In this document: positions 2,700 to 45,359 of the stretch, piece after piece
How the letters are laid out: each line of letters opens with the position of its first letter
How positions within the stretch are numbered: the first letter of the stretch is position 1
Source: a virus
Length of the DNA: 64,000 bases
Strand: one strand, 5' to 3'
Virus record (IMG/VR): IMGVR_UViG_3300032288_004534
Location: 6,406-70,405 of that record
Notes under the pieces: model-generated
Told to the model about the DNA's origin: nothing
Seen by the model: only the letters and a program-made list of their open reading frames with translations
Databases searched by the model: none
Program-made: the position numbers and the translations under genes

Positions 2700-4088
2700 T
2701 TACATCAGGTTTGTCACGGCCACAAAGCGATAGTAGATATTCGCCTTGCCGTCGCCGAATGAACCAATCGTTCCATCGGCGGCTGTTGTTGCAAACGGAT
2801 TGGCCACAATACCGTAACGAGTCTTGAAGCCAATCTTCGGCTGGAATGTATCCTGACCGATAGCGCGCACCATCTGGAGCGGCACATACGGGCAATAGAA
2901 CAGGCCGGCATCGAAGGCTGAAGAACCCTTGTAGCCAACTGTCAGATACTGCTTGCCAGTTGATGATGAGAAGTACGGGTCGATGTAGACGCGGATGCGG
3001 CCATTCAGCACACCAGCGAATGTGTTGCCTGTGTCATCAACCTGCAGATTCGCTGACAGAGCAGGTGTATAGTCAAGCACACCAGCCATTGACAGAGCTG
3101 AAGCAACGTCTGATGAGCAGATCATCACGTTGCCCTTACCGCGACGAGTAGCCTTCGCGATTTGGTTAGCTTCACGCTCGATCTGGAACAGCAGACCCTT
3201 GAACTTTTCAACCATCCAACGACCGTTTGAGTCAACGTCAAGGTTGAATGTGCCTGTTGAAGTCACATTTTCTTGAGCGCCAGCCGTGGCGGTGTAGTTG
3301 ATTGTGCGAACCACTTCGCGGTTGATTTCCGCAAGGATTTCAGCAGATAGAATGTTCGCAAGTTCTGATTCGGCGTCCAGACCATGGATAGCCTTCAGAT
3401 CTTGCGCCAGTTCCATCGTATATTCAGCCTTCAGAGCGCGTGACACTGCAGTCACGGCGACCTTCTCGACTGAGAATGCCATTTGCTGGAATGCATTGGA
3501 TGAACCGTCACCAAGAGCTTCCGCACGTGATGTTGTCATACCAGTTGACACGGTATAACCTGAAGCACCAGCCTTCACGCGGCCTGTAGGATCTGTACCG
3601 TCCTGAACGCGACCAGATGAAGTATTCGCGACAACAAAGCGAGAAGCTGTGTTACCTGCAGCCGCTGAAGTGAATGTTGTATTCGCTTCATTGAACAGCG
3701 CTTCTGTACCATCCTGAGATGTATAACGTGAGCGCAGAGCGAAGATCAGACCTGTTGGGCCAGTCATTGGCTGCACGCCGCAGATATCATAGGCAATCAG
3801 GTTTGGCATCGAACGACGAACCAGTGAGATAAGCACTGGATCGAAGATATCGATATTACCTGCTGAAGCTACTGAAGAAGAAGCACCCATCGCATTCGCG
3901 GGAGCAGCTTCACCTAGCAGACCAGGCGCGCGATAGCCGCCTGAGCCAATCGCTTGCTGGCGTGAATCAGACTCTTGGTTTTCCAAGAGCTGAGCCAGCA
4001 CGGCACGCTTATGTGAATCCTTAACGGAGGGGAGGTCACCATGGTCGATGACCGCGCCCCACTTCTGGATCAGAGACTCTGTATTCAT
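2700..4088 (-). CDS. 23: Major capsid protein gp23
   Basis: LIAYDICGVQPMTGPTGLIFA, RALKAEYTMELAQDLKAIHGLDAE, FQPKIGFKTRYG. Confidence 0.98.
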   Translation of the reverse strand: MNTESLIQKWGAVIDHGDLPSVKDSHKRAVLAQLLENQESDSRQQAIGSGGYRAPGLLGEAAPANAMGASSSVASAGNIDIFDPVLISLVRRSMPNLIAYDICGVQPMTGPTGLIFALRSRYTSQDGTEALFNEANTTFTSAAAGNTASRFVVANTSSGRVQDGTDPTGRVKAGASGYTVSTGMTTSRAEALGDGSSNAFQQMAFSVEKVAVTAVSRALKAEYTMELAQDLKAIHGLDAESELANILSAEILAEINREVVRTINYTATAGAQENVTSTGTFNLDVDSNGRWMVEKFKGLLFQIEREANQIAKATRRGKGNVMICSSDVASALSMAGVLDYTPALSANLQVDDTGNTFAGVLNGRIRVYIDPYFSSSTGKQYLTVGYKGSSAFDAGLFYCPYVPLQMVRAIGQDTFQPKIGFKTRYGIVANPFATTAADGTIGSFGDGKANIYYRFVAVTNLM

Positions 4089-4110
4089 GGTAGTTCCCTT
4101 TCCTAGGAAT

Positions 4111-4128
4111 ATTGGCTATTTAGCCGAT
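4111..4128 (-). promoter_or_regulatory. Late promoter-like CTAAATAG in a small inverted repeat upstream of gp23
   Basis: ATCGGCTAAATAGCCAAT on minus strand; variant of the T4 TATAAATA. Confidence 0.55.
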
Positions 4129-5183: not shown

Positions 5184-5221
5184 TTCCTGTCTCCCTTGGG
5201 ACTTAGATGATGATCTTGTGA

Positions 5222-5229
5222 TATTTATA
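5222..5229 (-). promoter_or_regulatory. T4-type late promoter TATAAATA (gp22)
   Basis: Exact TATAAATA, intergenic. Confidence 0.8.
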
Positions 5230-5241
5230 AAATGTGGTTAT

Positions 5242-5892
5242 TTAAAGCTTGGTAATAAAATCGCGGAACACGTTTAGCACTTCCGATTCGGTGCGACGTG
5301 AACGAGAAGCTTCGTTTATGCGAGTCTTATAACCAGCAATGTCGACTTCTTTCAAAATTCCATTATCCCAAACCCATTCTTTACCTTCCATAACACCATG
5401 TACAAATGCATCTGGAGCGGAAGGGTCAGCGACAATATCCGCAGCTGTTGCTAGATGAAAGTCATCTTGAACTTCCATGCAACCGTTACGTTCCTTTAAA
5501 GAACCCATACCACGAGTAGATACCCCAAGACGAGCACCTTCATCCATAAGATTCTTGACAATATTACCATATGGTGTATCCATGATCTTGGCACGACCAA
5601 TGTAATTATTTCCATCTTCGCGCAATTCTTTGATCATGTGTGATACACGCTCAAGATTGATGGTTGGTCCTGATGGGTGACCAAGCTCACCATAAGCACG
5701 ATTTTGTTTGATATGTTCATCAACATATCGATTAACTTCGCGCTCCATGATGTGCTTTGGATATGAGCGATTATTACGGTTCTTTTGTTCGGCCTGCATA
5801 AACACGCCTTCAATGAAATAACTGCGTCCACCGCGCTCATTAGCCTCGGTGATGACTTTCAATTCTTCATTGACTTCGCATATGAGTTTCAT
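5242..5892 (-). CDS. 21: Prohead protease gp21
   Basis: GELGHP, LGVSTRGMGS, DIVADPSAPDAFV. Confidence 0.96.
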   Translation of the reverse strand: MKLICEVNEELKVITEANERGGRSYFIEGVFMQAEQKNRNNRSYPKHIMEREVNRYVDEHIKQNRAYGELGHPSGPTINLERVSHMIKELREDGNNYIGRAKIMDTPYGNIVKNLMDEGARLGVSTRGMGSLKERNGCMEVQDDFHLATAADIVADPSAPDAFVHGVMEGKEWVWDNGILKEVDIAGYKTRINEASRSRRTESEVLNVFRDFITKL

Positions 5893-5904
5893 TGAAGTTA
5901 TTCC

Positions 5905-7181: not shown

Positions 7182-7213
7182 TACAATATGCTCCTATGTT
7201 TAACTTAATGCCA

Positions 7214-7221
7214 TATTTATA
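7214..7221 (-). promoter_or_regulatory. Late promoter TATAAATA
   Basis: Exact match, intergenic. Confidence 0.8.
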
Positions 7222-7228
7222 ATAAAAG

Positions 7229-22428: not shown

Positions 22429-23346
22429 TTAAGAATCCTGACCTGTTATTGGATCATATTTCACACCACTAGGATAGAAAAATGTATTAGGTGCATATTT
22501 CCAAGCAGAATTTGCTTGTATGAGATTTGGATTTATAGATGCTGCACTATTTGTAGTACCAACACCATTCGCATAAAGACCTGGTTGAACTGTCACTCTA
22601 GAGTTGATAAGAACCTTTTCAATTTCTTCATCTGTGATATCAATAGTTATACCATACAAAGTATTAGCTTTAGGTTTTAAATCCATAGCACTAATATTGA
22701 TAATCGACCGTTTGATCAAACCATCAGAACCAGAATTACGAACCGGACCAAAGAACCAACACTTCATAGTAAAATTAAATGTTTGAACTAAAGCTCTGCG
22801 GTTTTCATAATCGCCTTCATATGTATCTTCTATACTCATACCTGTCAATATAGTAGGTATGTCCATCTTGATACCCATCTCAGGAATCAAATTTATACTA
22901 TTAGTCCATTCGGGTCCAAAATATGGTAAAATCTGTTCCATAATTTGCACACCATCATCAGCATTTCTTACATAAGAATGTAAAGAAAAATTCAAATTCC
23001 AAGGGACTGGTGTTCTTTGATATCTTAAATTATTAGAATCAGTCGCCGATATAGAAACATTTCTTGTCGTCGATGGTAAACGTCTAGTGCCATCATATTC
23101 AAAGCCTGTTATCTCAAAAGCTAATCTAGGTAAAATGGTCTGAACTTGTGATGTTAGATCAGGATTATCACGTATTCTGGCTAACCATTTTTCTTTTGGG
23201 CTATATGTTATTGGTACGGCAATAGTTTGAATATTATTGTTATCTGCATCTATTCTACTTACTGTCATATCATTAAACATGTTACCAAAAGCAATAACAT
23301 ATTTGCGTAATGTCTGATGATAAAAAGTAGATCCGAACATTGGCAT
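22429..23346 (-). CDS. 15: Tail sheath stabilizer gp15
   Basis: FYHQTLRKYVIAFG, LPRLAFE, QIMEQILPYF. Confidence 0.93.
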   Translation of the reverse strand: MPMFGSTFYHQTLRKYVIAFGNMFNDMTVSRIDADNNNIQTIAVPITYSPKEKWLARIRDNPDLTSQVQTILPRLAFEITGFEYDGTRRLPSTTRNVSISATDSNNLRYQRTPVPWNLNFSLHSYVRNADDGVQIMEQILPYFGPEWTNSINLIPEMGIKMDIPTILTGMSIEDTYEGDYENRRALVQTFNFTMKCWFFGPVRNSGSDGLIKRSIINISAMDLKPKANTLYGITIDITDEEIEKVLINSRVTVQPGLYANGVGTTNSAASINPNLIQANSAWKYAPNTFFYPSGVKYDPITGQDS

Positions 23347-23348
23347 GG

Positions 23349-24185
23349 TTAATACCTGTCTATTTCGCTAAATGGATTTCGTTCGCTAAAATCAATATCA
23401 GCAAATGATTTTAGTGTAAAGGTTTGATTATTAGCAGTACCACCAAGTAATGTATATTCTTGATATAGAAATCCATTATCTTCAATCAATATTGGTTCGC
23501 TATTTTCGGTCAATAGATTATATCCAAGGACATCTCTGCTATAACGATCTTCTATTATATCTATCGCGGTATTACCAGTATCAATACGTTCAGAGCTATA
23601 ACGGAATAGTTCACATGTCATTTCATATGTGTATAACTTGCCGTGTTGATAAAAGACACGTTCATGCTCAACAAATTTTACTTCATAGATAGCGCCGTTT
23701 CCATTGTTTATAAAAGGAATATAAATCAAATCGCCTTCAAGAGGACGCGATGATGAAATAGAATATCCGTTGGCTGATCCTGTTTCTAGCAAATAATTGT
23801 CTGTGTTTGATGAATAATTTGCAGGATTGTCTTCTGTAAGATATATGTTTCCAACCTCATCAACCATCTTCTCAGTGCGAATCTGATCCCAACGACGACG
23901 GGCCATTGTGAGTGTAATCTGATCACGAATTTCCAAATTAAACTTACTAAGAAAATCACCCTCACCTTGAAAATTTTCAAGATTATTCACATAGACTTCA
24001 ATAGGTACTGCTAGATCAAATTTTGATAATGGATCTTCACCAAATTCTTCAATCTCATTGAATATGGTGCGCGGCATGTATTGCACATCGACACCATAAA
24101 TCTTGATGACCTCAACCATGAGGTCATCTTCTACCCTTTGTTCTCTTCCGTAATTATAATTGCGAAAATATTTGTTTGTGGCCAT
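23349..24185 (-). CDS. 14: Neck protein gp14
   Basis: IYGVDVQYMPR, FGEDP, PLEGDLIY, DFSERNPF. Confidence 0.93.
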   Translation of the reverse strand: MATNKYFRNYNYGREQRVEDDLMVEVIKIYGVDVQYMPRTIFNEIEEFGEDPLSKFDLAVPIEVYVNNLENFQGEGDFLSKFNLEIRDQITLTMARRRWDQIRTEKMVDEVGNIYLTEDNPANYSSNTDNYLLETGSANGYSISSSRPLEGDLIYIPFINNGNGAIYEVKFVEHERVFYQHGKLYTYEMTCELFRYSSERIDTGNTAIDIIEDRYSRDVLGYNLLTENSEPILIEDNGFLYQEYTLLGGTANNQTFTLKSFADIDFSERNPFSEIDRY

Positions 24186-25813: not shown

Positions 25814-26452
25814 TTAGACTTGTCCTACCAAAACTGAAGTTTTTAAGGGCAATGAGTTTGTAAAAGCTCCCGTAAATTCATGAGAATATATTTCTTTGCT
25901 AAATGATATTTGGTGTCTTAAATCATCTATAGAAAATATAGGATTTATATTATAAGCTCTGAGTGTATTGTTATTTCCTGCTAAACAAATAATGGTATCT
26001 TTTTTTATATTTGGTAATAATTGTTTAATTGGTAATAATCTATTGACGGACGGAATTATTATAATATTTGATTGGTTTACTTCATTTTGAATGTCATCAA
26101 ATATTACATCTTTTCTAACATATCTAATTGAATTATCTCTTTTTAAAATTTTTTTAATATGATTTCCCATTTTAGATACATTAGGATCATGATCTAATAG
26201 AGTTACGGAATGAAAATTAATTTTACTGTTTATCAACGGTTCTAATATTGGTATGGAAAACCATGAAGCTAATATTGTTATTTTATACAATGGTTTTAGA
26301 TATGGTATAATAGCCAAAGCTATAGCATATTCATGAATAGAATTGTAATTGCTTAGACTGAACATTATGCGATCATATGATTCCTTATCTAATATTTTTT
26401 CTAATGATGAATATTTTGTTCTGATCTCATTAATAAAAATATTATAATTCAC
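25814..26452 (-). CDS. Hypothetical, class I SAM-methyltransferase-like fold
   Basis: ITILASWFS (degenerate motif I), VTLLDHDP, KDVIFD; GTG start at 26452 coupled to the upstream stop (start uncertain). Confidence 0.45.
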   Translation of the reverse strand: MNYNIFINEIRTKYSSLEKILDKESYDRIMFSLSNYNSIHEYAIALAIIPYLKPLYKITILASWFSIPILEPLINSKINFHSVTLLDHDPNVSKMGNHIKKILKRDNSIRYVRKDVIFDDIQNEVNQSNIIIIPSVNRLLPIKQLLPNIKKDTIICLAGNNNTLRAYNINPIFSIDDLRHQISFSKEIYSHEFTGAFTNSLPLKTSVLVGQV

Positions 26453-27173
26453 GATTTGATTCCCATAAATCTCTAGCCCAATGTTTTGTATCAGATATAT
26501 CAAGACCAATACCATGAGAATTATTGAATATGCATATTTTATAGTCTGGTCTAAAAGTTGCAACTTTTAGATCATTAGGATATTCTGCACCAGAATTATA
26601 TGAATATACTAGTTTTCTTGGATGAAATGAATATTCATTTTCTTGTAAATAATATAATGATTTGTCAAAACTATCATATACTTTACTTATTTTATCTATA
26701 TTTTTTTGATAGAAATTAAAGACACCATCTAACTGATTATCTTTCCATGTTACAAATGACGAATTTATATCACACCAACTATCACCATATGCTGTCTTTT
26801 TATGATTTTCATAATTCCAATAATTTTTAATGATTCTAGGTTCATAAAAATTATAAGAATTAAGATATTCTGTAATATCATTATGAATTAATATATCCAA
26901 ATCCAATAACACATACGGACCATTACAATTTAAAAATCCATTTTTAAAACAACTAACCTTTTCAATTGTAAACATTGAAGATGATGTGCCTCTCCAATGA
27001 GACATTTCTTTTATATCATAGGTCTTTATGTCGATAGATAGACCTGCAGGATTATCAGTAATACAGTTAAAATCAAAATCAAGTTGACAATATTTTTTTA
27101 CCATATTATTGAGATAATTTACATATTTGTGTGAATATTTTTTACCCCATTTAAAACATATAAATCTAATCAT
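26442..27173 (-). CDS. Glycosyltransferase-like (GT-A fold)
   Basis: ICFKWGKKYS..YV..L..MV, CITD, LLDLD (DxD), INSSFVTW. Confidence 0.75.
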   Translation of the reverse strand: MIRFICFKWGKKYSHKYVNYLNNMVKKYCQLDFDFNCITDNPAGLSIDIKTYDIKEMSHWRGTSSSMFTIEKVSCFKNGFLNCNGPYVLLDLDILIHNDITEYLNSYNFYEPRIIKNYWNYENHKKTAYGDSWCDINSSFVTWKDNQLDGVFNFYQKNIDKISKVYDSFDKSLYYLQENEYSFHPRKLVYSYNSGAEYPNDLKVATFRPDYKICIFNNSHGIGLDISDTKHWARDLWESNREL

Positions 27174-27201
27174 AACCACCCTTCATCACTGGAGTTATTT
27201 T

Positions 27202-27834
27202 ATGTATAATGTATATTCAGTATTGGTTAAGCCAAAATATAGTGTAAGAGATGTGAAAAAAATAAATGGTCTTTGCCATAGATACATTCCAGGCAAATTC
27301 AAACACTATTGTTTGACTGATGATACTGAGCAATTTGCGGGTGAAAATTTCTGCGAGCTAATCGATATCAAGAAATATGAATTAGATATCTGGTGGAATA
27401 AAATGATATTATTTGAACAAGGTATATGTCCTAAAGATGAAATTTGTTTATTTTTTGATCTTGACTCAACCATAATTAATTCATTAGCACCAATATTATC
27501 AAATTATAATGGTAAATTAACTTTGGCCACAAATCCACATAAACTTAATAGACAATTTATAAGTTCTATAATGTATCACAAATACGGAAAATATTATACG
27601 ATGATGAACTCATCGTTTATGATGTGGAAAGGTGATCATAATATAGACCTATGGGAAAAATTTGCTAATAATGCAGATTACTATTGCAGCAAATACATAT
27701 TAGGAAATGATCAATTCATGACTTTTGAATATGATAATTTTCATCTATTAGATGAAAAATATATCACAGATTTTCAATTAAAAAGGATGAAGCTTGACAC
27801 ACCTGAAGCAATCATATCACTAAAAGATTTATGA
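27202..27834 (+). CDS. Glycosyltransferase-like (GT-A fold), opposite orientation
   Basis: GGAG before ATG 27202; CLTDD, WWNKM.LF, FFDLD, NSSFMMW, GNDQF; same family as the neighbour. Confidence 0.75.
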   Translation: MYNVYSVLVKPKYSVRDVKKINGLCHRYIPGKFKHYCLTDDTEQFAGENFCELIDIKKYELDIWWNKMILFEQGICPKDEICLFFDLDSTIINSLAPILSNYNGKLTLATNPHKLNRQFISSIMYHKYGKYYTMMNSSFMMWKGDHNIDLWEKFANNADYYCSKYILGNDQFMTFEYDNFHLLDEKYITDFQLKRMKLDTPEAIISLKDL

Positions 27835-28464
27835 TTCGATTTCTTCAACCATATTTTCCCAAATATTTTTGTCATAGATGACATAGCTAAGTGTTAAACG
27901 ATCACATTCGGTTCTAGCTGAATGCCAATAAATTTTATCAGGCTCACTAAATCTACCAAAATATCCAACCTTAATTGACCAACCTGGCTTGTCTTTAAAT
28001 TCTATGATTTCTCTTTTCTCCAAATCATAATGATAAAATGCACCATCGCCAGTTTTGCTATAGGTCATTACTATATTATAACCATGAGCATTTGCATTAT
28101 TATGCCATCCTATAAATCCTTTAGGGGGATAATACATCTTTAATGCATTATTTCTAGCACCAAGAAATGTCATAAGCTCATCATCTAGTTCTTTAAGAAC
28201 TGGATGAAAATGTTTTGGAATCTTTTCTGGACGCATCATTAACATATCCGCACCCCATGCATCGCGCGGGAAACCAAATCTATCCGGAGTGGGTAAAGCA
28301 TCTTCAAGATATTTTAAACTTGTGCATTCAATATGCGACAAATTTTTCTTGAAATCATCTCTTCGTTGAGTTTCTAGGGATGTATAATCTTGACGAAAAA
28401 ACCATTCACTAAAATTATCTAATATCTTTTGGAGATCCGGATGTATTCTCGATAAAACCCGCAT
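27829..28464 (-). CDS. Putative 2OG-Fe(II) oxygenase-fold protein
   Basis: YYPPKGFIGWHNN, G.F.Y, distal YWHSA and R-L-T, consistent with a double-stranded beta-helix oxygenase. Confidence 0.6.
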   Translation of the reverse strand: MRVLSRIHPDLQKILDNFSEWFFRQDYTSLETQRRDDFKKNLSHIECTSLKYLEDALPTPDRFGFPRDAWGADMLMMRPEKIPKHFHPVLKELDDELMTFLGARNNALKMYYPPKGFIGWHNNANAHGYNIVMTYSKTGDGAFYHYDLEKREIIEFKDKPGWSIKVGYFGRFSEPDKIYWHSARTECDRLTLSYVIYDKNIWENMVEEIES

Positions 28465-29164
28465 GGATTTTCTCCTTAGGTATAGTATAATGATGGACCA
28501 CTATTGGTTTGTCTGTTTCATTGTCATTATAATTATATACGAAATTCCATCTAGCATCATCAGGTAGTGTGGCTACTTTTATATCAAATTGATTTTCTTT
28601 ACAAAGGCGCCAAAAAGTAAATTGATCCCAAGGCTTCATTCTTTCAGTATATTTTGGCCAAGGCCAAACTTTGGAATGTATTTGAATTAGATAATCATCC
28701 CACCATTTTTTCATGAATGCGCGAACCTTCTCTGTATTCCTATACAGAAAAAGACCACAATGATATTTCATTTTTTCGGTATTATTAACCGCAGTGCCTT
28801 TACCGCTATATTCACGGATCTCAGTCAGAGCAATATCATTATCACCTAATAGTTCAAAGATATCTTTAATATCTTCATGCCAAACTTCAGTATCACAATC
28901 CATATACAATGTTATATCATATGGTGATTTATCAAGCGCATATAGTTTTGCCCTAGTGTGCACAGGAACACCAGTATGAATATTTTCGAAAAGATATCTA
29001 TCTTTATCTTTTACAAAATCTTTATGTGTAAAAAGAGTTATGCGAGCATCAGGATAATGATCTTTAATTGATACTGCTAATCTAATCCCTGCATCATAAA
29101 AAGCAGATGATATAGATGCTACAAGTAAAAATCCTTTACTGAGCTGTGTTTGCTGAGGCTCCAT
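28415..29164 (-). CDS. Glycosyltransferase (GT8-like / nucleotide-diphospho-sugar transferase)
   Basis: K.YAL.KSPYDITLYMDCD, HCGLFLY, WDQFTFW, RWN, VVHH. Confidence 0.75.
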   Translation of the reverse strand: MEPQQTQLSKGFLLVASISSAFYDAGIRLAVSIKDHYPDARITLFTHKDFVKDKDRYLFENIHTGVPVHTRAKLYALDKSPYDITLYMDCDTEVWHEDIKDIFELLGDNDIALTEIREYSGKGTAVNNTEKMKYHCGLFLYRNTEKVRAFMKKWWDDYLIQIHSKVWPWPKYTERMKPWDQFTFWRLCKENQFDIKVATLPDDARWNFVYNYNDNETDKPIVVHHYTIPKEKIHAGFIENTSGSPKDIR

Positions 29165-29627
29165 CTGTCACACCTTCATTATTTAATTGTTCATTGGTAT
29201 TTTCAATGGCTTGCTGAGAATTATAATTTTCCATAGCAATCATTGATGCTATTATTGAAACTTCCATAGGACTAGTAGCTTTACGCAATTTAGATTTTAA
29301 TGCCATATTTTTAGAAGTTCTAACTAATTCAATTTCAAAAGCATCACTCTTTGCCATAAACAAAGCTTCACGCTTTTGCATTTCTGCATTACGTTGTTGG
29401 TCCATCTGACGCTTAACACGATTAGATTCATGCGTCTGACGCTTCTTAGCAGTATTAGCATCAATTTCTTCGATACTATATTTTTCAAATATTTCTATCC
29501 AATCAGGATTACCTTCTGCTGTCTGCGTAACAGATGCTGTCAGGATCTTGCCATCATCATATTTGAACAGGCATACTACCTGGTTTTTTAAATTAGATGC
29601 CCAATACGGGTCTAATATTTCTCTCAT
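29136..29627 (-). CDS. Hypothetical protein coupled to the repeat protein
   Basis: 163-aa ORF starting 1 nt after the upstream stop and overlapping the downstream GT. Confidence 0.7.
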   Translation of the reverse strand: MREILDPYWASNLKNQVVCLFKYDDGKILTASVTQTAEGNPDWIEIFEKYSIEEIDANTAKKRQTHESNRVKRQMDQQRNAEMQKREALFMAKSDAFEIELVRTSKNMALKSKLRKATSPMEVSIIASMIAMENYNSQQAIENTNEQLNNEGVTDGASANTAQ

Positions 29628-29628
29628 C

Positions 29629-31623
29629 TTAGGCTGTCCTTACCCATAAGCTGACTGTTGAAACATTTTCTGTAGTAACTTGAATTGTAGCACCAGTATA
29701 ATTTCCCGTATATGTACCACCGTAATTACCTGTATAGCTACCACCATATGTAGACGTAAAATTACCTGCATATGATCCAGTAAATGCGCTAGAATAAGCA
29801 CCTGCATAATTACCAGCAAATGCTCTAGAATATGCACCTGCATAATTACCTGTAAATGTACTAGAATATGCTCCTGCATATGCCCCAGTAAACGTTCTAG
29901 AGTAGTTTCCTGTATAAGAACCAGCATATGATCCTACAAATGATCCTGTATAAGAACCGCCATAGAATCCTGTAAATGCTCTAGCATAATTTCCTGTATA
30001 AGTACCAGCATATGATCCTACAAATGATCCTGTATAAGAACCACCATAGAATCCTGTAAATGCTCTAGCATAATTTCCTGTATAAGAACCAGCATATGAT
30101 CCCGTAAATGATCCTGTATAAGAACCGCCATAGAATCCTGTAAATGCTCTAGCATAATTTCCTGTATAAGTACCGGAATATGTTGAAGTATAACTGCCTG
30201 TATATGTACCACTATAATTTGTGGTATAGTTACCAGTATATGCACCAGAATATGTTGAGGTATAACTGCCTGTATATGAACCGGTAAAAAACCCAGTATA
30301 ATTTCCTGTAAATGTGCCAGTAAATGGTGTTCCAGAAAATGGTGCATTAAATACGCGTGAATAGAATCCTGTAAATACCCTTGAATAAGCCCCTGCATAG
30401 GATCCTGAAAATGCTCTGGAATAAGATCCTGTATATGATCCTGAGAAAGCTCTAGAATAAGATCCTGTATATGATCCTGAGAAAGCACTAGAATAACCTC
30501 CGGTATAAGCACCAGAATATGTTGAAGTATAACTGCCTGTATATGATCCTGTAAATGGTGACGTATAGGTTCCAGAATATGAGCCAGCAAATGCACCAGA
30601 ATATGTTGAGGTATAGTTACCAGTATATGATCCTGTAAATGGTGACGTATAGGTTCCGGAATATGAACCAGCAAATGCACCAGAATATGTTGAGGTATAG
30701 TTACCAGTATACGATCCACTATATGTGGATGTGTAGCTACCTGTATATGTGCCGCCATATGTTGATGTATAATTACCGGTATATGTACCACCATAGGTTG
30801 ATGTATATGTACCGCTATAACCACCAGCAAATGCGCTAGAATAACTACCTGTATATGCGCCGGAATAAGTTCCCGCATAGTTTCCAGTATATGTTTGATT
30901 TGCTAAAGTATTTCTAGTATCAACAAAGGCAGCACCAGCAGTTACCCATGTACCGCCAACAGGTGCCGTTTCTTGTATCGCATATTTACCTATACCTGTA
31001 GAAACTATTTGATTTCTTAATCTAGGAGTTAATGTTTGAATATTAGCATCGGTCATTTCGCGGATATTAGCACCATCTAAGCGCAATGGTCTAACTGTTG
31101 TAGGTGCAGCACCACCTGTTTTCCGCCATAGTGTTGTTGAATTAGAACCTGAATTTGTAGTATTTGTAATAGTTGATATTGACGTCCAAGTACCCGCCGG
31201 AGAACTTGGCTGTAATGCATATGAACCAATACCAGTTGTGACTAGATTAGTTAGTGCATTTGATATGATAGCACCATTTAATTGTGTATCATTTTGGGCC
31301 CTAACTGCGCTAGTAGAAAATTCTAATGGCCGCAGTAAACCTGTTTCGGATGCTGAACTTAAATCTTGCTTAAACACATATGATACTGATGTAATTGTAG
31401 TACCAACTGGATGATCACCAACAGCACCAGGTCTAGTGGTATCAATAAATGTGCCTATTGTAGTACCAGTAGCACCATCAACATTTAATGTGCCCACACC
31501 AGATTGTGTAGATGCAAAATCTTTCAATATTACATCTATTGAATAATCTTGCTCTGCTGTGGTCATGGTCTGAAGACCTTGGAAGGTAGCTCCAGATTTT
31601 TTAATTTTTAGAGGCGATGCCAT
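29629..31623 (-). CDS. Tyr/Gly/Ser/Thr tetrapeptide-repeat virion protein
   Basis: About 245-aa N-domain, about 400 aa of (Y/F)-x-(G/S)-x repeats, short C-terminal strand VSLWVRTA. Confidence 0.8.
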   Translation of the reverse strand: MASPLKIKKSGATFQGLQTMTTAEQDYSIDVILKDFASTQSGVGTLNVDGATGTTIGTFIDTTRPGAVGDHPVGTTITSVSYVFKQDLSSASETGLLRPLEFSTSAVRAQNDTQLNGAIISNALTNLVTTGIGSYALQPSSPAGTWTSISTITNTTNSGSNSTTLWRKTGGAAPTTVRPLRLDGANIREMTDANIQTLTPRLRNQIVSTGIGKYAIQETAPVGGTWVTAGAAFVDTRNTLANQTYTGNYAGTYSGAYTGSYSSAFAGGYSGTYTSTYGGTYTGNYTSTYGGTYTGSYTSTYSGSYTGNYTSTYSGAFAGSYSGTYTSPFTGSYTGNYTSTYSGAFAGSYSGTYTSPFTGSYTGSYTSTYSGAYTGGYSSAFSGSYTGSYSRAFSGSYTGSYSRAFSGSYAGAYSRVFTGFYSRVFNAPFSGTPFTGTFTGNYTGFFTGSYTGSYTSTYSGAYTGNYTTNYSGTYTGSYTSTYSGTYTGNYARAFTGFYGGSYTGSFTGSYAGSYTGNYARAFTGFYGGSYTGSFVGSYAGTYTGNYARAFTGFYGGSYTGSFVGSYAGSYTGNYSRTFTGAYAGAYSSTFTGNYAGAYSRAFAGNYAGAYSSAFTGSYAGNFTSTYGGSYTGNYGGTYTGNYTGATIQVTTENVSTVSLWVRTA
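29695..30895 (-). repeat. 12-bp-period coding repeat with higher-order 60-bp duplications
   Basis: Near-identical 60-bp blocks at 29941-30160 and 30541-30700. Confidence 0.9.
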
Positions 31624-31634
31624 ATCATATCACC

Positions 31635-32162
31635 TCAGGGATATACTTGTGAACCAGAAGAGTCATACACATAAAGAGGAGCAGTTGCTGTTCCTCCATC
31701 AGGAAATCTAAAGCCACCGGTAGATGACCGAATTATTCCAGCTACATCAAATGTAGTATTAGGATTAGTCTTACCAACACCAATTCTATTAGTAGTAGGA
31801 TTTATGAATAACGTACCAGAATCTATACTTAGTGTGGTTGAAATTGATACTGTATTCGCAGTAAATTCTACCTGCGATGCAGCAGTATCACCAAATACCG
31901 TATTTCCCGCTACTCTTAGATTTGATGAAATTCTTACACGACCATTAGCTTGCAGCAGACCATTTGTAATAGTAGTATCTAATGAAGAAGCACCTAGTTT
32001 TGTAGGACCAAGTGATATAAATCTAACATTTGCAATTAGTGTATTCGAATACAAAGAAGATTCATTAATTGTAAATTGGCTTAGACGATGAAACGCCTGA
32101 TTGGTTCTTATGCGCCAAGTATCAAATGTATTGGTAAGCGCGACATTTGCGATCTTAGCCAT
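31635..32162 (-). CDS. Short fibre/adaptor protein
   Basis: N-terminal TNTFDTWR..TN motif; RIGVG..NP...DVAG; C-terminus shared with the 2613-aa fibre. Confidence 0.65.
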   Translation of the reverse strand: MAKIANVALTNTFDTWRIRTNQAFHRLSQFTINESSLYSNTLIANVRFISLGPTKLGASSLDTTITNGLLQANGRVRISSNLRVAGNTVFGDTAASQVEFTANTVSISTTLSIDSGTLFINPTTNRIGVGKTNPNTTFDVAGIIRSSTGGFRFPDGGTATAPLYVYDSSGSQVYP

Positions 32163-39209: not shown

Positions 39210-40778
39210 TTAAAAAGTCACGATAAAGCGATAATCTTCAACTTGATCTGAAGTACGAGTGATAGGTGTTTTATTTTCTATGTATAACACTTCTCCGGTA
39301 CCTTCTCTAACTGCAGGTTTATCAAATGAGGTAACTATTGCATTTATATTAGTAGTACTTGATACCACAGTTTCTCCTGGTATAAAAAATACTCCAGTAC
39401 CTCCTGTAGTAACTCGCGTTAGTTTTAATATACCTTGAGTTCTAGCAGTATTGGTATTGGCAAATAGCACCAATCTACCTCTAGCACCGCTAGTGGAGCC
39501 AGTAATTACTTCATTCTCACGGTAATCACCTAATACACCAGTTACATGTACTCTAGATGTTTGGTCAATCAATACAGAATTTGCTGTAGGTCCAGAACGA
39601 AGTTTTGGATTACGCAATAAACCTACCATTCTCAATTCATTATTTGATGGATATGAATTAGCTTCATTGACACCCATTGAAACTGATATCATGACATTTC
39701 GGCCACCTAATTCATTTCTAGCACTTTTTCCGTGGCCACCAGGTGGTGACAAAACTGGATATATTGTGGCACCGGAACCATGAGAAGAATTAGCAATTAT
39801 TACTGCATTAGCGATAGAATAATTACGACCTGGTGTAATCATAGTAATTTTTCTTACCTGGCCTGCAATACAATTTGAAACATAAGCAGTAGCTCTTTGT
39901 GCAATAGTGGCTCCACTATCACCTCTTATAACTACATTAGGGCCTATAATATAAGTTGATGTAGTATTAGGTGTTATGGTAAATGCATTATTGACTATTG
40001 CAGTTTTTGTAATACCAATATATCTTACTATTCTACGTAATTGTCCTGCACCTAATCCTGATGATATGTACATGGTAGAATAATTATAAATTCCATCAAC
40101 CGAACTAGCTTCAGCTCCAAGTCTAAATGAAGTATTGCTAGATATCTGAACAAACGTATTACTCAATGACAAATATCCAGCACCATTGGCACTTATAACT
40201 ACATGATCTATAGAACCATTTGATGCGGCCTGCATAACAACCCATTGAGCCGAACCATTATTTGCCGTAAGTTCTTTTACCGGTATATTTGTTGATGTTA
40301 AAAATTTCTGAGCATCGGCCGAGGTTACATTATACATGAATTTCCAACGATAACCATCAGCAGTGCTTATTATTGAAGTACCAATACCTGCAGGTTCAAC
40401 AGTAGATGGAGCACCTCTATTATTATCAATACACTTATAAACATTGTTATCTGATGATAGAATATAAAATTGCGTATCATATAAATCCGCATTAGTATCA
40501 GTATATTGTGTATAAACAGTACCGCTAGTCCAATTATATCTCGGTATTACATGCGATACATCTGTATAATTAACCCTTTTTAAAGTTACCATATCTCTAT
40601 AGACATCAAATGACGTATTAAAAACATCATTAGCCACTGCCGGTGGAGATGCATCATTAGCAAACGGAATTGTTTTACCTACAAACATATACATGAGAGT
40701 AGGAGCAGCTTCATTGAAAGATTCATGAAACTGCTCCGCGGTATTGATGCTAAAATTTGATGTGGTGGTACCTGGCAT
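39210..40778 (-). CDS. 8: Baseplate wedge gp8
   Basis: IPRYNWTSG, VYKCIDN, DGYRWKFMY, SPPGGHG, GEVLYIEN..PITR..DQ.ED. Confidence 0.88.
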   Translation of the reverse strand: MPGTTTSNFSINTAEQFHESFNEAAPTLMYMFVGKTIPFANDASPPAVANDVFNTSFDVYRDMVTLKRVNYTDVSHVIPRYNWTSGTVYTQYTDTNADLYDTQFYILSSDNNVYKCIDNNRGAPSTVEPAGIGTSIISTADGYRWKFMYNVTSADAQKFLTSTNIPVKELTANNGSAQWVVMQAASNGSIDHVVISANGAGYLSLSNTFVQISSNTSFRLGAEASSVDGIYNYSTMYISSGLGAGQLRRIVRYIGITKTAIVNNAFTITPNTTSTYIIGPNVVIRGDSGATIAQRATAYVSNCIAGQVRKITMITPGRNYSIANAVIIANSSHGSGATIYPVLSPPGGHGKSARNELGGRNVMISVSMGVNEANSYPSNNELRMVGLLRNPKLRSGPTANSVLIDQTSRVHVTGVLGDYRENEVITGSTSGARGRLVLFANTNTARTQGILKLTRVTTGGTGVFFIPGETVVSSTTNINAIVTSFDKPAVREGTGEVLYIENKTPITRTSDQVEDYRFIVTF

Positions 40779-40807
40779 CTATTTGATCACCTTTCTGTGC
40801 AGGCTAT

Positions 40808-43510
40808 TTATTCCTGTATCACGAACTCTGAAGATTGTGTTAGTAATGCTGATCGATCTTGATTCAATAATCTTGGATTATGTTGGAACATATCAATTCT
40901 ATCCTGCACAGAATCGCATACAAATAATTTAGTCTGATCAGGATTGAATGTAATACCTGTTGGTGAAGTACCTACAGTAGCAATATACTGATTCAGATAT
41001 GCCGCAGTCTCTACATTCCATGCCTCAGATAATGCAAATCCATAGATTCTATCACTATTTGACCCAGAGATAAACATCTGAGTCCCCTCAATATTAAACT
41101 GGACATCATTTGGATTTAAATCTTGATTTCCTATGTAAAAGAAACTACTGCTTTCAAGCACTAGATGTTGTGCATCTTCCATCACACATACATCATCATT
41201 TTCAAATAATATATTATCATATAATATCGTGGCCGTTCTAACATCCCAAGCAGATGTTAATTGGCATTCAACTATCTTTCTATCACCCTCACCAACAACA
41301 AATAATTTGTATCCATCAGGTTTAAATGCAAATCCTTGATTTCCTGTATCAAGCTCGGTAAGTGACAAATCTGTGGTTGTTGTTGAGAAATCACCAAGTG
41401 CATCACCTGATTCAGTAGTTATGATATCACCAGCATGGGTCAAAAATTTATCTAATACAACATAAGCTGTCGATACATCCCATGCGGTACCAAGATCATA
41501 TTGAGTTATATTATCTCTGGTATTTCCAATGACATACATTCGACTACCATCAGGTTTAAACCTAATACCTGTTGGATTAATATCACCATAGTCAGAAGTT
41601 TTTGCTGTTGTATTTGCTACGGAAAAACTTTTTGATGCATAAGCCGCAGTAGTTATATCAAAAGGTGTAGTTAAATTATATTGATAAACTCTATCTGTGG
41701 TTATACCAACAATATACATTTTTTGACCAGATGGACTAAATTCAACACCGCTAACATTCAATTCTTGACTGCCAATATTAAAATGAGTATTTGTAGCAAG
41801 TCTACTCAAATTATTGGCAAATATAACCATACGAGTAGCGGTATCAGCATCAGTTCTGACAATATTGTGACCAGGATGTGGCAAAGTAGAGATGGTTTGA
41901 AATTCACCAAACATCTTAGTGCCAGCAGGATGCAATATACGCTTGACAACATCACGGTATTTGTTTATGGTTTCTGTTATTCTTAAAACATAAGAATATT
42001 CTTGATAAAAATTGTTATCTTGTAATTTGTTGTTCCAGCTTATAAAGCCTTTAGTATCAGTATAGCGGCCTGGTAAAGTTATAACACCGGATACTTCTGG
42101 AGAAATTACACCATTATAGGTATTAGCACGTAATGTATAACGAGTTATTCCTGCCAAATCTGTATATGATTCGGGTGTAAGTGCAGTACCTCTAATATTA
42201 GTCAATGAGGCGGTAGAAAATCTATCAAATGATGCATCAGATGCAACTATTGAAATTGCATCAATCGTACCAGGAGCATTTTCAGCAACTATTAATCCAT
42301 CACCACCTTGAAAGAGATTGTTTTGTCCAGGTATGGCCCTATCATAAATTTCTTGGTCTCTAACCACAACAGTTGGTAAAGATGTTTGATAACCACGACC
42401 AACGGATGTTACTGTTATCGAATTTATAGAACCTACAATAGAATTTGTAAAATTTAATGCTGTAGCAAGCTGTGATGATATATTTGCAGCAGCAAGATTG
42501 GCAGATAACGCAGTGCTATTAGTACCTAATGACGCAAAAGTAGCTCCGGTAGATAAAACTACATTACTAACAGAACGAATTAAATCATTATTTAATGATA
42601 ATGTTGATGTGTTTGAAAGTGAAGTAACAACTGCTGATGCGCCATTACCACTTCCGCCAGTAATAGATATTAAGCTAGTATTTCCAAGTCTATAACCACT
42701 ACCACCTCTGGTAATTTTAAATGTAATAGCGCCGCCGGTAGGGGCAGTAGATACCACTCTACCAGTGGCAACAGCAACACCTGATGTTATGGTTATATTA
42801 TCACCAGCAGTATGATATGCACCACCATCTAAAACACTAGCTTTTACTATAGAACCAAATTGCGATTGAATGCGAGCCGTATTTCCTAAGTTATCCTGAA
42901 CAATTTCATCATTTTGAAAAGTACCAATTACATTTTCTATGGTCAATTCATATAGATCAATACCTAACACATTTACTTGTGATACACCTTGAACCTTTGC
43001 TCTAGCACCAGATGTAAGACCTATTAGATTACGGCCCTCAAAAACCGTAGGTAATGCATTAAACGGACGTCCTACTCTAAGCAGAGTTTCTTTTGTCCAT
43101 CGTCCATCTGATGCTCTAAGAATATAATCACCGGGATAATATAAATCAATTTCTTTATTGAAAAGTGCACGAAACAAAAATCTATAAGAAAATTCAGAAC
43201 CTCTGGTTCTGTAGAATTGACGAATATGTTTAGTAAGAAGTCGTTGATCAGCTAATACATCTTTTGGTATGTTTAGCATAAACTCTTTACGAAAATAATC
43301 AAGAAATGAATCTATAGTCCTATCAATATCTTGATATTCTATAAGACTTCTACCTGTTGTGACTACGTTTCCTGATTGCTCTAAAAATTCATAATAAGCT
43401 TTTAGAAATGAAACAAATCTAGGGCCTTCTTCTCTAATAAATGCAGGAAATTGTGCCTCTATTAGAGGTGAAATCTTCTTAAAGATTTCTTCAGCGCCGG
43501 ATATATTCAT
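40808..43510 (-). CDS. Baseplate wedge gp7-like with C-terminal beta-propeller
   Basis: QFPAF...FLKAYYEFLE, FYRTRG, SDGRW, LQDNNFYQEYSY, HPAG; repeated F.PDG..MY..G...D.I.QY.L...WDV.TA blades. Confidence 0.75.
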   Translation of the reverse strand: MNISGAEEIFKKISPLIEAQFPAFIREEGPRFVSFLKAYYEFLEQSGNVVTTGRSLIEYQDIDRTIDSFLDYFRKEFMLNIPKDVLADQRLLTKHIRQFYRTRGSEFSYRFLFRALFNKEIDLYYPGDYILRASDGRWTKETLLRVGRPFNALPTVFEGRNLIGLTSGARAKVQGVSQVNVLGIDLYELTIENVIGTFQNDEIVQDNLGNTARIQSQFGSIVKASVLDGGAYHTAGDNITITSGVAVATGRVVSTAPTGGAITFKITRGGSGYRLGNTSLISITGGSGNGASAVVTSLSNTSTLSLNNDLIRSVSNVVLSTGATFASLGTNSTALSANLAAANISSQLATALNFTNSIVGSINSITVTSVGRGYQTSLPTVVVRDQEIYDRAIPGQNNLFQGGDGLIVAENAPGTIDAISIVASDASFDRFSTASLTNIRGTALTPESYTDLAGITRYTLRANTYNGVISPEVSGVITLPGRYTDTKGFISWNNKLQDNNFYQEYSYVLRITETINKYRDVVKRILHPAGTKMFGEFQTISTLPHPGHNIVRTDADTATRMVIFANNLSRLATNTHFNIGSQELNVSGVEFSPSGQKMYIVGITTDRVYQYNLTTPFDITTAAYASKSFSVANTTAKTSDYGDINPTGIRFKPDGSRMYVIGNTRDNITQYDLGTAWDVSTAYVVLDKFLTHAGDIITTESGDALGDFSTTTTDLSLTELDTGNQGFAFKPDGYKLFVVGEGDRKIVECQLTSAWDVRTATILYDNILFENDDVCVMEDAQHLVLESSSFFYIGNQDLNPNDVQFNIEGTQMFISGSNSDRIYGFALSEAWNVETAAYLNQYIATVGTSPTGITFNPDQTKLFVCDSVQDRIDMFQHNPRLLNQDRSALLTQSSEFVIQE

Positions 43511-43511
43511 C

Positions 43512-45359
43512 TTAGAAAGATGTCACAAAAGTAATAGAAGTTGAACTAAGTGTAGTAGTGGTACCAATTGTATTGATTGGATCAATCAATGATTCCTCTC
43601 TACCAGTATTATCATTTAATACCTTAACCCTAGAATTGCTTATTAGCAATATCTGATTTCGTATAGGATATACATTATAATCTGCAATCTTAACTGAAAA
43701 ATTGATCTCACCATTTAATGATTGGGGTCTAAATGAATTGATAATTATTCTTCCAGTATTGTAATCTATAGATCCTATGTTATTAACCACAAAATTCTTT
43801 TGTGCATTTCTCAAAAAATAAATTCGAATATTACCAAAACCATCATCATCAAAATAACACTGTTCGCCTGCATATCCAAATGCATTTGAACTCACAGCAG
43901 AGACATACCCATCATTTGGATGAAATATGGGTCTATTAAAAGTTAATGTATAGGTATTTTCACCAGTTAAAGATGGTATAAATCTTTTCTGTACAGAAAT
44001 ATCAGCAGTGGTCGATTCGATAGATGTGCTGGCCGAATCTAAAATATCTAAGAATCTAGAATATCTAAATTTGCCTTCAAATCTATTCAAATATGTTGAT
44101 TCATATTGAATAATTTTATTTGCAACAGCATCACCAATTTCAGATGCAGATAAAGTAGTCTTTAATGGGTCATATCTTACAGTGATAACTGGATTAACAT
44201 AAAGATATGTTGGATCCACTATTTCCATATCTATAGTCTGAACATTGTATTTACGCATGTCAGCTTTAATCTGATTTTTGCGTCTAGTAGATATTAATGT
44301 ACCTTGTTTAGCTGTTAAGGATGCATATACTTTACCATATACTGGTGGTGAATTTTCTTCACCACCCCATATATTAACACCGGATATATCTGGATTGTTC
44401 TGTAAAATAATACGTCGATAATCTTCAGAAGTAACAGCTCTACCTTGAGTTTCATATAATCTAGGTGCATTAAATCTGATTGATTCCATTGTTTCTACAT
44501 CAGCGCCACCAATTGCTCTTTCCATTGTCGATAGTGTAAATGATGACTGCCCACCCACAGTACCAGAAGCAGTAAAATTATTTGCACCATTTGGTCTGAC
44601 GCCATTACAAACACGATATGAAATTAATACAGTGCTATTATATGCAGGTCTAGTACCTAAAACATTGTCACCAAATCCGACTTTATAAAGCTTATTCTTA
44701 TCAGGTTCTACGAAAAAGATTTTTGATGATGAATTTACTGTTGTTAAATCAGTTGCTTGTATATATGTTTGTGTATTACCACCAGTGGTTACGTCAACTG
44801 ATATGCTTGATATATCCGTATTCGCATTAGGTAAAACAAATGATGTATTAGCTGTCGTAAATGCATATCTATGGGTAAGAGGAGTTCCCTCAGTTATATC
44901 AATATAACCAGTAAACCGATTTGTAGTATTAGCTTTTATAGAATAAGATTTAGGTGTGACAAAAATATAAGATACACCATTTACTAAGGTTGTAAATCTA
45001 GTATTTTTTGCGACAGTTATAGTACGAAAGCTTGCATTAGCTACAGCAGAGGTAAAGGTCACCTTTACATTAGCAGTTGCACCACGCGCAGAATTAGGAA
45101 GATAACCAAGCATTTTAGCTCTTGATACAACATTGTCATATATCTGAGCGGTATCTAAGAAAGATTCATTTGCAGCCATATTAGCATAAAAGGACATATA
45201 ATATGTGTTGTATGCTAATAAATCAAGCAAGGTACCAATCGCAGAATCTTCAAAATCAAAATCTGAAAATTCTGATCTGCCTGCAATAAAATTTCTCAGA
45301 TTTAAACGGATCGAATCAAAATCTAGACCCGCTACTGTTAGAGCTGTATTTGCGGCCAT
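43512..45359 (-). CDS. 6: Baseplate wedge gp6
   Basis: LDFDSI, LLDLLAYNTYY, RAVTSEDY, WGGEENSPPVYGKV. Confidence 0.93.
   Translation of the reverse strand: MAANTALTVAGLDFDSIRLNLRNFIAGRSEFSDFDFEDSAIGTLLDLLAYNTYYMSFYANMAANESFLDTAQIYDNVVSRAKMLGYLPNSARGATANVKVTFTSAVANASFRTITVAKNTRFTTLVNGVSYIFVTPKSYSIKANTTNRFTGYIDITEGTPLTHRYAFTTANTSFVLPNANTDISSISVDVTTGGNTQTYIQATDLTTVNSSSKIFFVEPDKNKLYKVGFGDNVLGTRPAYNSTVLISYRVCNGVRPNGANNFTASGTVGGQSSFTLSTMERAIGGADVETMESIRFNAPRLYETQGRAVTSEDYRRIILQNNPDISGVNIWGGEENSPPVYGKVYASLTAKQGTLISTRRKNQIKADMRKYNVQTIDMEIVDPTYLYVNPVITVRYDPLKTTLSASEIGDAVANKIIQYESTYLNRFEGKFRYSRFLDILDSASTSIESTTADISVQKRFIPSLTGENTYTLTFNRPIFHPNDGYVSAVSSNAFGYAGEQCYFDDDGFGNIRIYFLRNAQKNFVVNNIGSIDYNTGRIIINSFRPQSLNGEINFSVKIADYNVYPIRNQILLISNSRVKVLNDNTGREESLIDPINTIGTTTTLSSTSITFVTSF

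Follow-up and report, generated by a model that had tools for sequence, protein, structure and literature searches.

An [A/S/G]-Asn-[T/S] tripeptide over-used on the exterior proteins of some T4-like phages: a possible surface modification sequon

Introduction

Virion glycosylation is documented for chloroviruses and for some mycobacteriophages. In the latter, capsid and tail-tube proteins are reportedly O-glycosylated by phage glycosyltransferases (GTs), the O-linked glycans being said to lie on Ser/Thr-rich C-terminal tails in siphoviruses of actinobacteria. We know of no report of virion glycosylation in T4-like phages of Gram-negative bacteria. The full-text literature searched, which covered few subscription journals and no supplements, held no report of glycosylated T4-like virions or of the motif described below, nor any sequence motif from which the modified positions of a phage particle could be foretold. 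The present analysis concerns a 64,000-nucleotide stretch of viral DNA (the window; bases 6406-70405 of the 70,405-bp IMG/VR virus record IMGVR_UViG_3300032288_004534, estimated to be 37% complete) and the tripeptide class [A/S/G]-Asn-[T/S], which recurs in the exterior virion proteins encoded there. According to PHROG and Pfam scans, the window is the structural half of a T4-like myovirus, with its genes mostly on the minus strand.

Phage GT genes lie beside structural genes in the mycobacteriophages and are thought to decorate the virion, and the window likewise has an island of GT-like genes; the mycobacteriophage system differs in having no Asn-centred tripeptide spread over many proteins of a T4-like myovirus. 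The bacterial enzymes HMW1C and ApNGT, of family GT41, transfer hexose in the cytoplasm to Asn of folded or nascent proteins, but the sequon that they use is N-X-S/T, which is not enriched in the window.

A third comparison is with the chloroviruses. Their Asn-glycosylation sites are given as NTGT, NTET, NTAT and NIPG, with I, V, L, K or G at +1 at other sites or in other strains, and Glc-Asn linkages are mentioned for Haemophilus and Actinobacillus (PMC9614988); PBCV-1 has its own GTs and a GDP-mannose 4,6-dehydratase and epimerase-reductase (GMD and GMER) (PMC5408694). As in PBCV-1 Vp54, Asn in the window motif is followed directly by Thr rather than by X-S/T, with ANT and SNT as the top tripeptides when the enriched phages are pooled, and the phage record likewise contains Gmd, an epimerase/reductase, GT-A enzymes and a methyltransferase. 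A small residue at -1, a strong feature of the phage motif, is presumably shared by PBCV-1. Unlike the phage, PBCV-1 is a eukaryotic giant virus in which only the capsid protein is known to be glycosylated; the phage motif lies on capsid, sheath, neck, baseplate and fibres, shows no enrichment of Thr at +3, and belongs to a phage known here from sequence alone. The sequence-only reading of the window from which this work started had described the chlorovirus sites as (A/G)NTxT-like. The N-T pair is real, but '(A/G)' before Asn is not among the sites in the available part of the article (PMC9614988).

Results

Over-use of the motif in the window phage

The motif was originally picked by eye on this window. 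All the strings quoted at that time are present: three in the capsid protein; NANT, SSNT, VGNT and AANT in the sheath; KANT and QANS in gp15; AANT, KANT, TANT and NANT in gp6; FANT, IANS and TANS in gp8; LANT, EANT, FANT, PANT, HANT and GANT in a 2268-aa structural protein; and dozens, now counted as 72, in a giant fibre. The near-absence from interior and non-structural proteins was also borne out, with no site in the portal, tube, protease, scaffold, gp26 or gp32 and one each in TerL, UvsW and KdsA.

Counts were compared with 1000 shuffles per test, made either globally or within 10-aa windows. The exterior and interior sets were drawn after the per-protein table had been seen, and the tests on other phages described below are independent of that choice. 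The 12 exterior and fibre-module proteins other than the giant fibre contain 53 sites, as compared with 24.0 expected from global and 26.3 from local shuffling (z 5.5-6.3). The excess thus survives the composition-matched check that the sequence-only reading had proposed, and composition or local composition as its cause was rejected. In the 18 interior or non-structural proteins, 3 sites were found where about 7 were expected. Per protein, the observed and shuffled counts are 4 and 1.2 for the capsid protein, 6 and 2.3 for gp6, 7 and 2.6 for the gp7-like protein, 6 and 2.4 for gp8, and 16 and 6.5 for the 2268-aa protein.

The order of the residues matters. Permutations of the same composition are rarer, the reverse [TS]N[ASG] occurring 21 times against 53 for the motif (2268-aa protein and other exterior proteins summed). 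Exact ANT, with 22 occurrences against 3.56 expected, is the third most enriched of all tripeptides in the exterior set; GSY, YTG and GNY are other top tripeptides of that set. The canonical sequon N[^P][ST] shows no enrichment in the same 12 proteins (97 vs 91.5) and was rejected as the underlying pattern; the enriched one has its hydroxyl residue at +1.

The 72 sites of the giant fibre (20 expected, z ~12) come almost entirely from a 48-aa repeat, with LANT 41 times, and a 33-aa repeat carrying SGNT (autocorrelation peaks at 48 and 33/96). Because they are copies in tandem repeats, these sites are not independent events. The fibre starts with a collagen-like Gly-X-Y run (residues ~37-106), followed by ~35 copies of the 48-aa repeat and then the 33-aa repeats, and over the final ~120 residues it has 55% identity with orf175 of the fibre module.

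Enrichment is confined to some T4-like lineages

Nine exterior families (gp23, gp18, gp15, gp14, gp13, gp6, gp7-like, gp8 and VrlC-like) were scored in relatives. DLP6, Cr30, phiM12 and OC are non-marine isolates; T4 and four marine phages (Melnitz, HTVC008M, S-SSM7 and Mosig) make up the negatives. Among the IMG/VR relatives, labelled G001-G010, the last five are complete or near-complete genomes picked solely for carrying a GT group 1 gene (PF00534). Enrichment is 2-2.8-fold in DLP6, Cr30, phiM12 and four of the five IMG/VR genomes, 1.4-1.6-fold in OC and G007, and about onefold in T4 and the four marine phages (Table 1). For T4, 19 exterior proteins hold 26 sites against 25.4 expected. The summed exterior counts are 411 vs 183.7 in the positive phages and 104 vs 108.2 in the negative ones, and the idea that the motif is a generic trait of T4-like exterior proteins was rejected on the strength of T4 and the four marine phages.

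Table 1. Motif counts in the exterior families of the window phage and its relatives (observed/expected).
Phage	Exterior, motif	Exterior, ANT
Window phage (OWN)	47/18.8	19/2.8
Stenotrophomonas phage DLP6	48/18.7	20/4.1
Caulobacter phage Cr30	54/19.5	
Sinorhizobium phage phiM12	33/14.7	
Ochrobactrum phage OC	20/14.6 (weak)	7/2.5
G006	53/24.9	
G007	17/10.9 (weaker)	
G008	47/22.9	
G009	41/20.4	
G010	51/18.3	
Melnitz	13/16.7	about 1x
HTVC008M	19/18.9	about 1x
S-SSM7	24/26.8	about 1x
Mosig	22/20.4	about 1x

When all 8000 tripeptides were ranked in the nine clearly positive phages, ANT came first (116 vs 28.5) and SNT second (110 vs 35.1); the corresponding values in the negative phages are 14/13.5 and 20/16.7. 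In DLP6 alone, ANT ranks third. The interior proteins of the same phages show nothing of the kind. Across 17 interior or non-structural families, the window phage has 4 sites (7.1 expected) and DLP6 has 3 (6.1 expected), with ANT at zero in both; in the interior and non-structural orthologues of four positive phages the motif stands at 16 vs 25.3 and ANT at 0 vs 4.0, and the interior proteins of G006-G010 are mostly at or below expectation. The contrast between exterior and interior proteins was repeated in 19/19 IMG/VR relatives of the window gp6 (54-97% identity).

Other tripeptides are over-used in the exterior orthologues of individual phages, namely FDS in Melnitz (11 vs 1.6) and TNR (19 vs 2.1) and PPP (11 vs 0.7) in DLP6, which may be repeats or other lineage-specific motifs. 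In a gp6 tree, all phages with the GT group 1 gene fall together in a single clade (support 100/99) and the window clade groups with OC (86/86); the relation of those clades to the pelagiphage/Melnitz clade and to S-SSM7 is left unsettled at that node.

Shape, turnover and position of the sites

Position -1 strongly favours A and S, weakly favours G and F, and disfavours D, K, V and L. At +1, T stands well ahead of V, G, S, A and N, with E, K, R and Q disfavoured; of 404 motif sites, 269 have T and 135 have S. Slight preferences are seen at +3 for A, L, N and I, together with weak alternating hydrophobic preferences in the flanks (V at -4 and +5, Y at +4). With Asp in place of Asn, as ADT, the ratio is about onefold in negative phages and lower in positive ones, and a generic Asx-turn preference was rejected on this ground.

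Across seven aligned families, the window phage and DLP6 have just three motif columns in common, one of them a GNT conserved in all phages; because so few columns are shared, the motif was gained independently in the two phages. Within the clade of the window phage, several sites are kept as A-N-[T/S] with T and S swapped and the flanks changing (gp6 columns 148, 178, 187 and 205; gp8 columns 450, 494 and 571), and other sites turn over. Retention of the pattern in this clade is 0.53, a modest difference from the 0.23-0.51 of permuted control patterns. In the gp6 of G002, Thr has been lost together at three otherwise conserved motif sites (ANVS, NANAD, NNQ), and the five-gene island described below is kept in that relative.

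The motif acts at the protein level. The 22 ANT sites are coded by 12 distinct 9-mers with background codon usage, and a DNA-level motif was rejected on this evidence. Shared mobile domains were likewise rejected as the source, since 54/56 sites outside the giant fibre lie outside segments with BLAST-detectable similarity to another exterior protein and only 2/56 lie inside.

By several proxies (conservation, indels and place along the sheath and capsid proteins), the motif positions are likely to be at the surface. The mean local-conservation percentile is 0.28 at motif sites and 0.47 at other Asn residues (Mann-Whitney p 2.5e-4), and the motif segments are rich in indels. In the sheath proteins of five phages, 26/27 sites fall within the first 52% of the chain and none within the last 39%; all four sites of the window gp18 are in its N-terminal 42%. 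The N-terminal domains of T4 gp18 are the ones that we take to face outward. In the capsid proteins of positive phages, the sites lie at 0.26-0.42 of the chain length, and the first three in the window gp23 fall where the sequence varies and indels are frequent, in a stretch that aligns with T4 gp23 ~151-170. We infer from the linker numbering of gp24 that this part of T4 gp23 belongs to the insertion domain, which makes surface protrusions in T4 (PMC9546572).

A module of ~53 aa, 55% identical between the two copies, is found at residues 158-210 of the sheath, in an outer insertion, and at residues 580-631 of the 2268-aa protein. The sheath copy also matches several PHROGs annotated as 'tail fiber protein'.

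Sugar genes and the island beside the fibre genes

The island consists of five small open reading frames (ORFs; Table 2). Its GT-like ORFs, at 26442-29164, sit between gp13 and the fibre genes and hence within the structural module, and the region has a low G+C content (0.325 for 24-28 kb). The AlphaFold2 (AF2) model of orf249b has a predicted local distance difference test score (pLDDT) of 92.8 and a predicted template modelling score (pTM) of 0.90, and Foldseek matched it with a probability of 1.00 and E ~5e-10 to glycogenin, LgtC, the UGGT catalytic domain and GlyE, and also to many viral GTs. Its DxD residues, D89 and D91, are invariant in 33 sequences. By its modelled fold, orf249b is confirmed as a GT8-like glycosyltransferase. 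It resembles GT8 enzymes, several of which act on proteins or protein-bound glycans, in its GT-A fold and invariant DxD, but its identity to glycogenin, LgtC, UGGT and GlyE is 12-20% and Pfam gave weak PF03407/PF00535 signals with none at the cut-off.

A second glycosyltransferase is probably encoded by orf235, placed beside viral GT8/Nucleotid_trans clusters in the Atlas, where orf235 and orf245 score 0.95-0.96. A gene between two GT-like ones, orf211, belongs to a widespread viral family with 109 database homologues and invariant H121, H181 and R189. Its nearest Atlas clusters are viral 'aspartyl/asparaginyl beta-hydroxylases' (0.93), a lead by which it is possibly an Asp/Asn-hydroxylase-like oxygenase; the family had no match in Pfam or in PDB profile searches. 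The other island ORFs were considered as paralogues of orf249b, and hhalign found no similarity.

The five-gene island is kept in G002 and G003, and GT genes adjoin the structural module in these two relatives and in the window phage, but none was detected there in DLP6. Homologues of orf249b and orf211 with 90-91% identity are carried by a 233-kb contig. In G001 (G001:C1:22000-41556, ~4742-18660), a different island of 16 ORFs occupies the same place, between the fibres and orf171. It encodes three RCC1-repeat proteins, three ORFs with Pfam 2OG-Fe(II) oxygenase matches, a sulfotransferase, an APS kinase, GT25, GT2 and GT9-like genes and a methyltransferase. The GT cassette of the window is real, and looks like a swappable glycan module; the G001 counterpart is a hypervariable cassette for glycans and sulfation at a fixed position. 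Left of the window (record bases 1-6405), the record encodes a GDP-mannose 4,6-dehydratase (Gmd; GDP_Man_Dehyd, E 1.5e-135) and an NAD-dependent epimerase/reductase (Epimerase, E 1.7e-50). The same segment holds an Asn-synthase/QueC-like ATP-pyrophosphatase cut by the contig end, a peptide deformylase and gp46/gp47-like recombination nuclease subunits.

A phyletic screen was made for DLP6 genes with homologues in Cr30, phiM12 and OC but in 0/4 marine phages, and it returned two. The first is a GT group 1 enzyme (PF00534, 37.5 bits); when its OC homologue served as the query for finding the gene in the window clade, nothing closely related turned up. The second is a 376-aa protein (phrog_11903) that adjoins the GT group 1 gene in phiM12 and in 21/80 IMG/VR loci. 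This protein was dropped as a candidate transferase, its model having a pTM of 0.37, no fold match at E <= 0.001 and nothing GT-like. Two DLP6 ORFs beside gp13 were also rejected as GTs, as they gave no GT signal, and no GT2 match was found in DLP6.

Gene content of the window

The window encodes UvsW, UvsY, a gp3-like protein, the major capsid protein, the scaffold and the prohead protease, followed by a TctC-family gene, the 2613-aa fibre, portal, tube, sheath, TerL, TerS, gp15, gp14 and gp13. The small-ORF island, the fibre-module ORFs, the 2268-aa VrlC-like protein, gp8, gp7-like protein and gp6 come next, and inner baseplate and hub genes, gp32, gp59, the FkbM methyltransferase, KdsA and PhoH complete it. 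The capsid protein is just 60-65% identical to those of the closest isolates, namely Stenotrophomonas phage DLP6, cyanophages, pelagiphages and Methylophilales phages.

The TctC/'Bug'-family gene, for a periplasmic tricarboxylate receptor, lies within the head/fibre module; it is an unusual auxiliary gene that may point to the host lineage. Its TTG start as listed overlaps the end of the giant-fibre gene by ~115 bases, and the real start is probably further downstream. A 755-aa ORF on the plus strand has collagen triple-helix repeats and no motif site.

Table 2. Coordinates of the features in the window (residue numbers refer to the encoded protein).
Feature	Window position	Strand	Motif sites	Assignment or remark
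Major capsid protein gp23, 462 aa	2700..4088	-		PHROG 138, E 2.5e-161
gp23 residues 135-156	3621-3686	-	135 ANT, 145 GNT, 154 ANT	
gp23 residue 354	3021-3029	-	354 GNT	conserved in 6/6 phages aligned
TctC/'Bug'-family gene	7229-8305	-		PF03401, E 2.5e-37
Giant fibre, 2613 aa	8190..16031	-	72	collagen-like N-terminus, then tandem repeats
Tail sheath gp18, 644 aa	18402..20336	-	62, 104, 216, 269	PHROG 23
gp18 residues 158-210	19707-19865	-		~53-aa module
Neck/sheath-terminator gp15 and gp14	22429..24185	-	gp15: 227, 278; gp14: 126, 204	PHROGs 227, 460/679
Island of five small ORFs	25814..29164	mixed		between orf171/gp13 and fibre genes
orf249a	25814-26563	-		
orf245	26442-27179	-		weak PHROG glycosyltransferase match shared with orf235, phrog_1962, E 5.9e-4
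orf235	27127-27834	+		phrog_1962, E 1.7e-6
orf211	27829-28464	-		
orf249b	28415-29164	-		GT-A/GT8-like glycosyltransferase (by modelled fold)
Fibre-module ORFs orf163, orf664, orf175	29136..32162	-	orf163: 2 ANT	no recognised family
orf664	29629-31623	-		
orf175	31635-32162	-	3	C-terminus in common with giant fibre
VrlC-like structural protein, 2268 aa	32386..39192	-	16 (7 ANT)	homologue of DLP6 'VlrC'
Baseplate wedge gp8, gp7-like (900 aa), gp6	39210..45359	-		PHROGs 438, 17744, 219
Collagen-repeat ORF, 755 aa	55888-58155	+	0 (1.3 expected)	PF01391, E 1.8e-16
FkbM-family methyltransferase	59774-60373	-		Pfam
KdsA-type DAHP_synth_1	60985-61803	-		Pfam

Discussion

Our proposal is that selection maintains [A/S/G]-Asn-[T/S], chiefly in the forms A-N-T and S-N-T, as a short linear motif on the outside of the virion. 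Its carriers would form a broad group, comprising the window phage and its IMG/VR clade, DLP6, Cr30, phiM12 and others, all of them non-marine T4-like phages. The motif reads as a recognition element because it is order-specific, exterior-only and lineage-specific, and because it has been gained repeatedly and kept with T/S interchange. It would serve as the recognition site (sequon) for a post-translational modification made in the cytoplasm during late infection, on either the exposed Asn or the neighbouring Thr/Ser. The most plausible chemistry would be glycosylation, as at the N-T sequons of chlorovirus capsids, and it would leave the capsid, sheath, baseplate and fibres modified, probably with glycans. 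A modification is favoured because of those chlorovirus sequons and the set of sugar genes on the record. What we infer is the existence of a modification, the atom that carries it and the enzyme responsible. To this reading, a surface modification sequon that is most plausibly one for glycosylation, we assign a probability of about 0.45.

A number of observations weigh against it. Position +1 is not strictly hydroxylated, ANV, ANG and ANA being also enriched 2-2.6-fold, and there is no Thr preference at +3 (1.0x background, 42/404), so that NTxT is not reproduced. One fibre-module protein, orf664, has fewer sites than expected (1 vs 4.0), and the same holds for its homologues in G002 (0 vs 3.2) and G003 (0 vs 1.3); orf664 is very rich in Thr, Ser and Gly (T+S 32%). 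No GT41 gene (PF13844) was found at E <= 0.01 in five records, those of the window phage, DLP6, Cr30, phiM12 and OC, a search that did not take in STT3/PglB.

The acceptor role for phage-encoded GTs that had been suggested with the motif stood in part only. Real GT and sugar-nucleotide genes are present in the record, but the window cassette has no BLAST homologue in the equally enriched DLP6, Cr30 and phiM12. One outcome that the sequence-only reading had named as refuting, equal enrichment in relatives lacking GTs, has therefore come about in part. These phages do carry another GT, of group 1 (PF00534), as does OC; the carriers of this second GT are one clade. Neither the window record nor the fragments G001-G005 yielded its gene, even with 16.6 kb beyond PhoH in G005 included, although these contigs are too incomplete for that to count as absence. 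In phiM12, the GT group 1 pair sits among early and DNA-metabolism genes (nrdC, rnh, phoH). Marine relatives, for their part, carry GTs and oxygenases at the same island position without motif enrichment. The link of the motif to this particular cassette is thus weakened. The main text of the DLP6 paper contains no instance of 'glycos', 'sugar' or 'mass spectrometry'; its supplementary gene tables might list sugar genes.

The comparison between lineages has its own limits. The positive phages may share one ancestor, which would make the contrast a single event, and positive and negative phages also differ in habitat, which by record source is soil, pond and sewage for the former and sea and gut for the latter. 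Because the trait is perhaps of single origin and confounded with habitat, associations with gene content carry little weight. The placement of sites within positive lineages, being independent, is free of this confounding.

The habitat split also suits the main rival, which we consider unlikely though a serious contender: an unmodified structural or physicochemical motif, in which small-Asn-Thr would be preferred for forming or capping exposed turns and the ends of strands as new surface loops evolve. Such loops, needing no enzyme, would replace in low-ionic-strength phages the acidic D/S-rich loops of marine relatives, and at some aligned positions marine phages indeed have D/S-rich strings where the window phage has ANT. 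The alternating hydrophobic flanks suggest a strand-turn-strand, +1 tolerates V, G and A, and Melnitz has an over-used tripeptide of its own in FDS. The same folds, however, occur in T4 and the four marine phages without an excess of ANT or SNT, or of ADT. Adaptation of composition or charge does not explain why residue order matters and the reverse motif is not enriched, and in the enriched phages the counts for interior proteins do not rise above expectation.

It is distinctly improbable, in our estimation, that the sequon serves another modification, either Asn beta-hydroxylation by a phage 2-oxoglutarate (2OG)/AspH-like oxygenase, possibly followed by further decoration, or methylation. 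The Atlas placement and invariant residues of orf211, between two GT-like genes, point in this direction, as do the FkbM methyltransferase of the window and the G001 island with its three oxygenase ORFs, sulfotransferase, APS kinase and methyltransferase. But the Atlas score is a lead only, with Pfam and PDB profile searches empty, BLAST found no orf211 homologue in DLP6, and marine phages negative for the motif also have many such oxygenases, as in the annotation of Mosig.

A weak multivalent binding motif, by which unmodified patches of exposed Asn and Thr adhere to host or environmental polysaccharide, would account for the spread over the whole exterior and the very high density in fibres; with nothing specific in its favour, and a strict small residue at -1 that is unusual for carbohydrate binding, we hold it to be very improbable. 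A statistical artefact, whether of composition or tandem repeats, of shared domains, of signals in the DNA or of the post-hoc choice of a motif picked by eye, is largely ruled out and scarcely credible except in the giant fibre, where repeats account for the 72 sites. Against it stand the local shuffles, permuted controls, sites outside shared domains, diverse codons, the recurrence of the excess in eight further phage genomes, where the positions are non-homologous, and the first and second ranks of ANT and SNT.

The modification reading can be taken further, to a proposition that is possible but doubtful: many non-marine T4-like phages may have their whole exterior glycan-coated at [A/S/G]-Asn-Thr by an unrecognised cytoplasmic Asn-glycosylation system, with sites turning over and swappable cassettes giving strain-specific chemistry. 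Such cassettes would be exemplified by the GT8-like genes of the window phage and the GT2, GT25, sulfotransferase and APS kinase genes of its relative. The coat would be the bacterial-virus counterpart of chlorovirus N-glycosylation, and the turnover of its sites would resemble that in the glycan shields of animal viruses.

The observation itself is confirmed and extends well beyond the window. A tripeptide class over-used 2-3-fold (ANT 4-7-fold), on exterior proteins only, in some lineages only and with independent gains at differing positions, makes a strong evolutionary case for a surface function. Three carriers can be cultivated in ordinary hosts, Cr30 on Caulobacter crescentus and phiM12 on Sinorhizobium meliloti, together with DLP6. 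The glycosylation interpretation is plausible but unproven, and a motif that proved unmodified would still be a lineage-specific rule for the make-up of surface loops that calls for explanation. If the interpretation is true, the motif would represent a new kind of phage surface chemistry and might point to the Asn-transferase of giant viruses. It would then bear on the long-unexplained sugar genes and hypervariable islands in the structural modules of T4-like phages, and on stability, adsorption and immune recognition in phage therapy.

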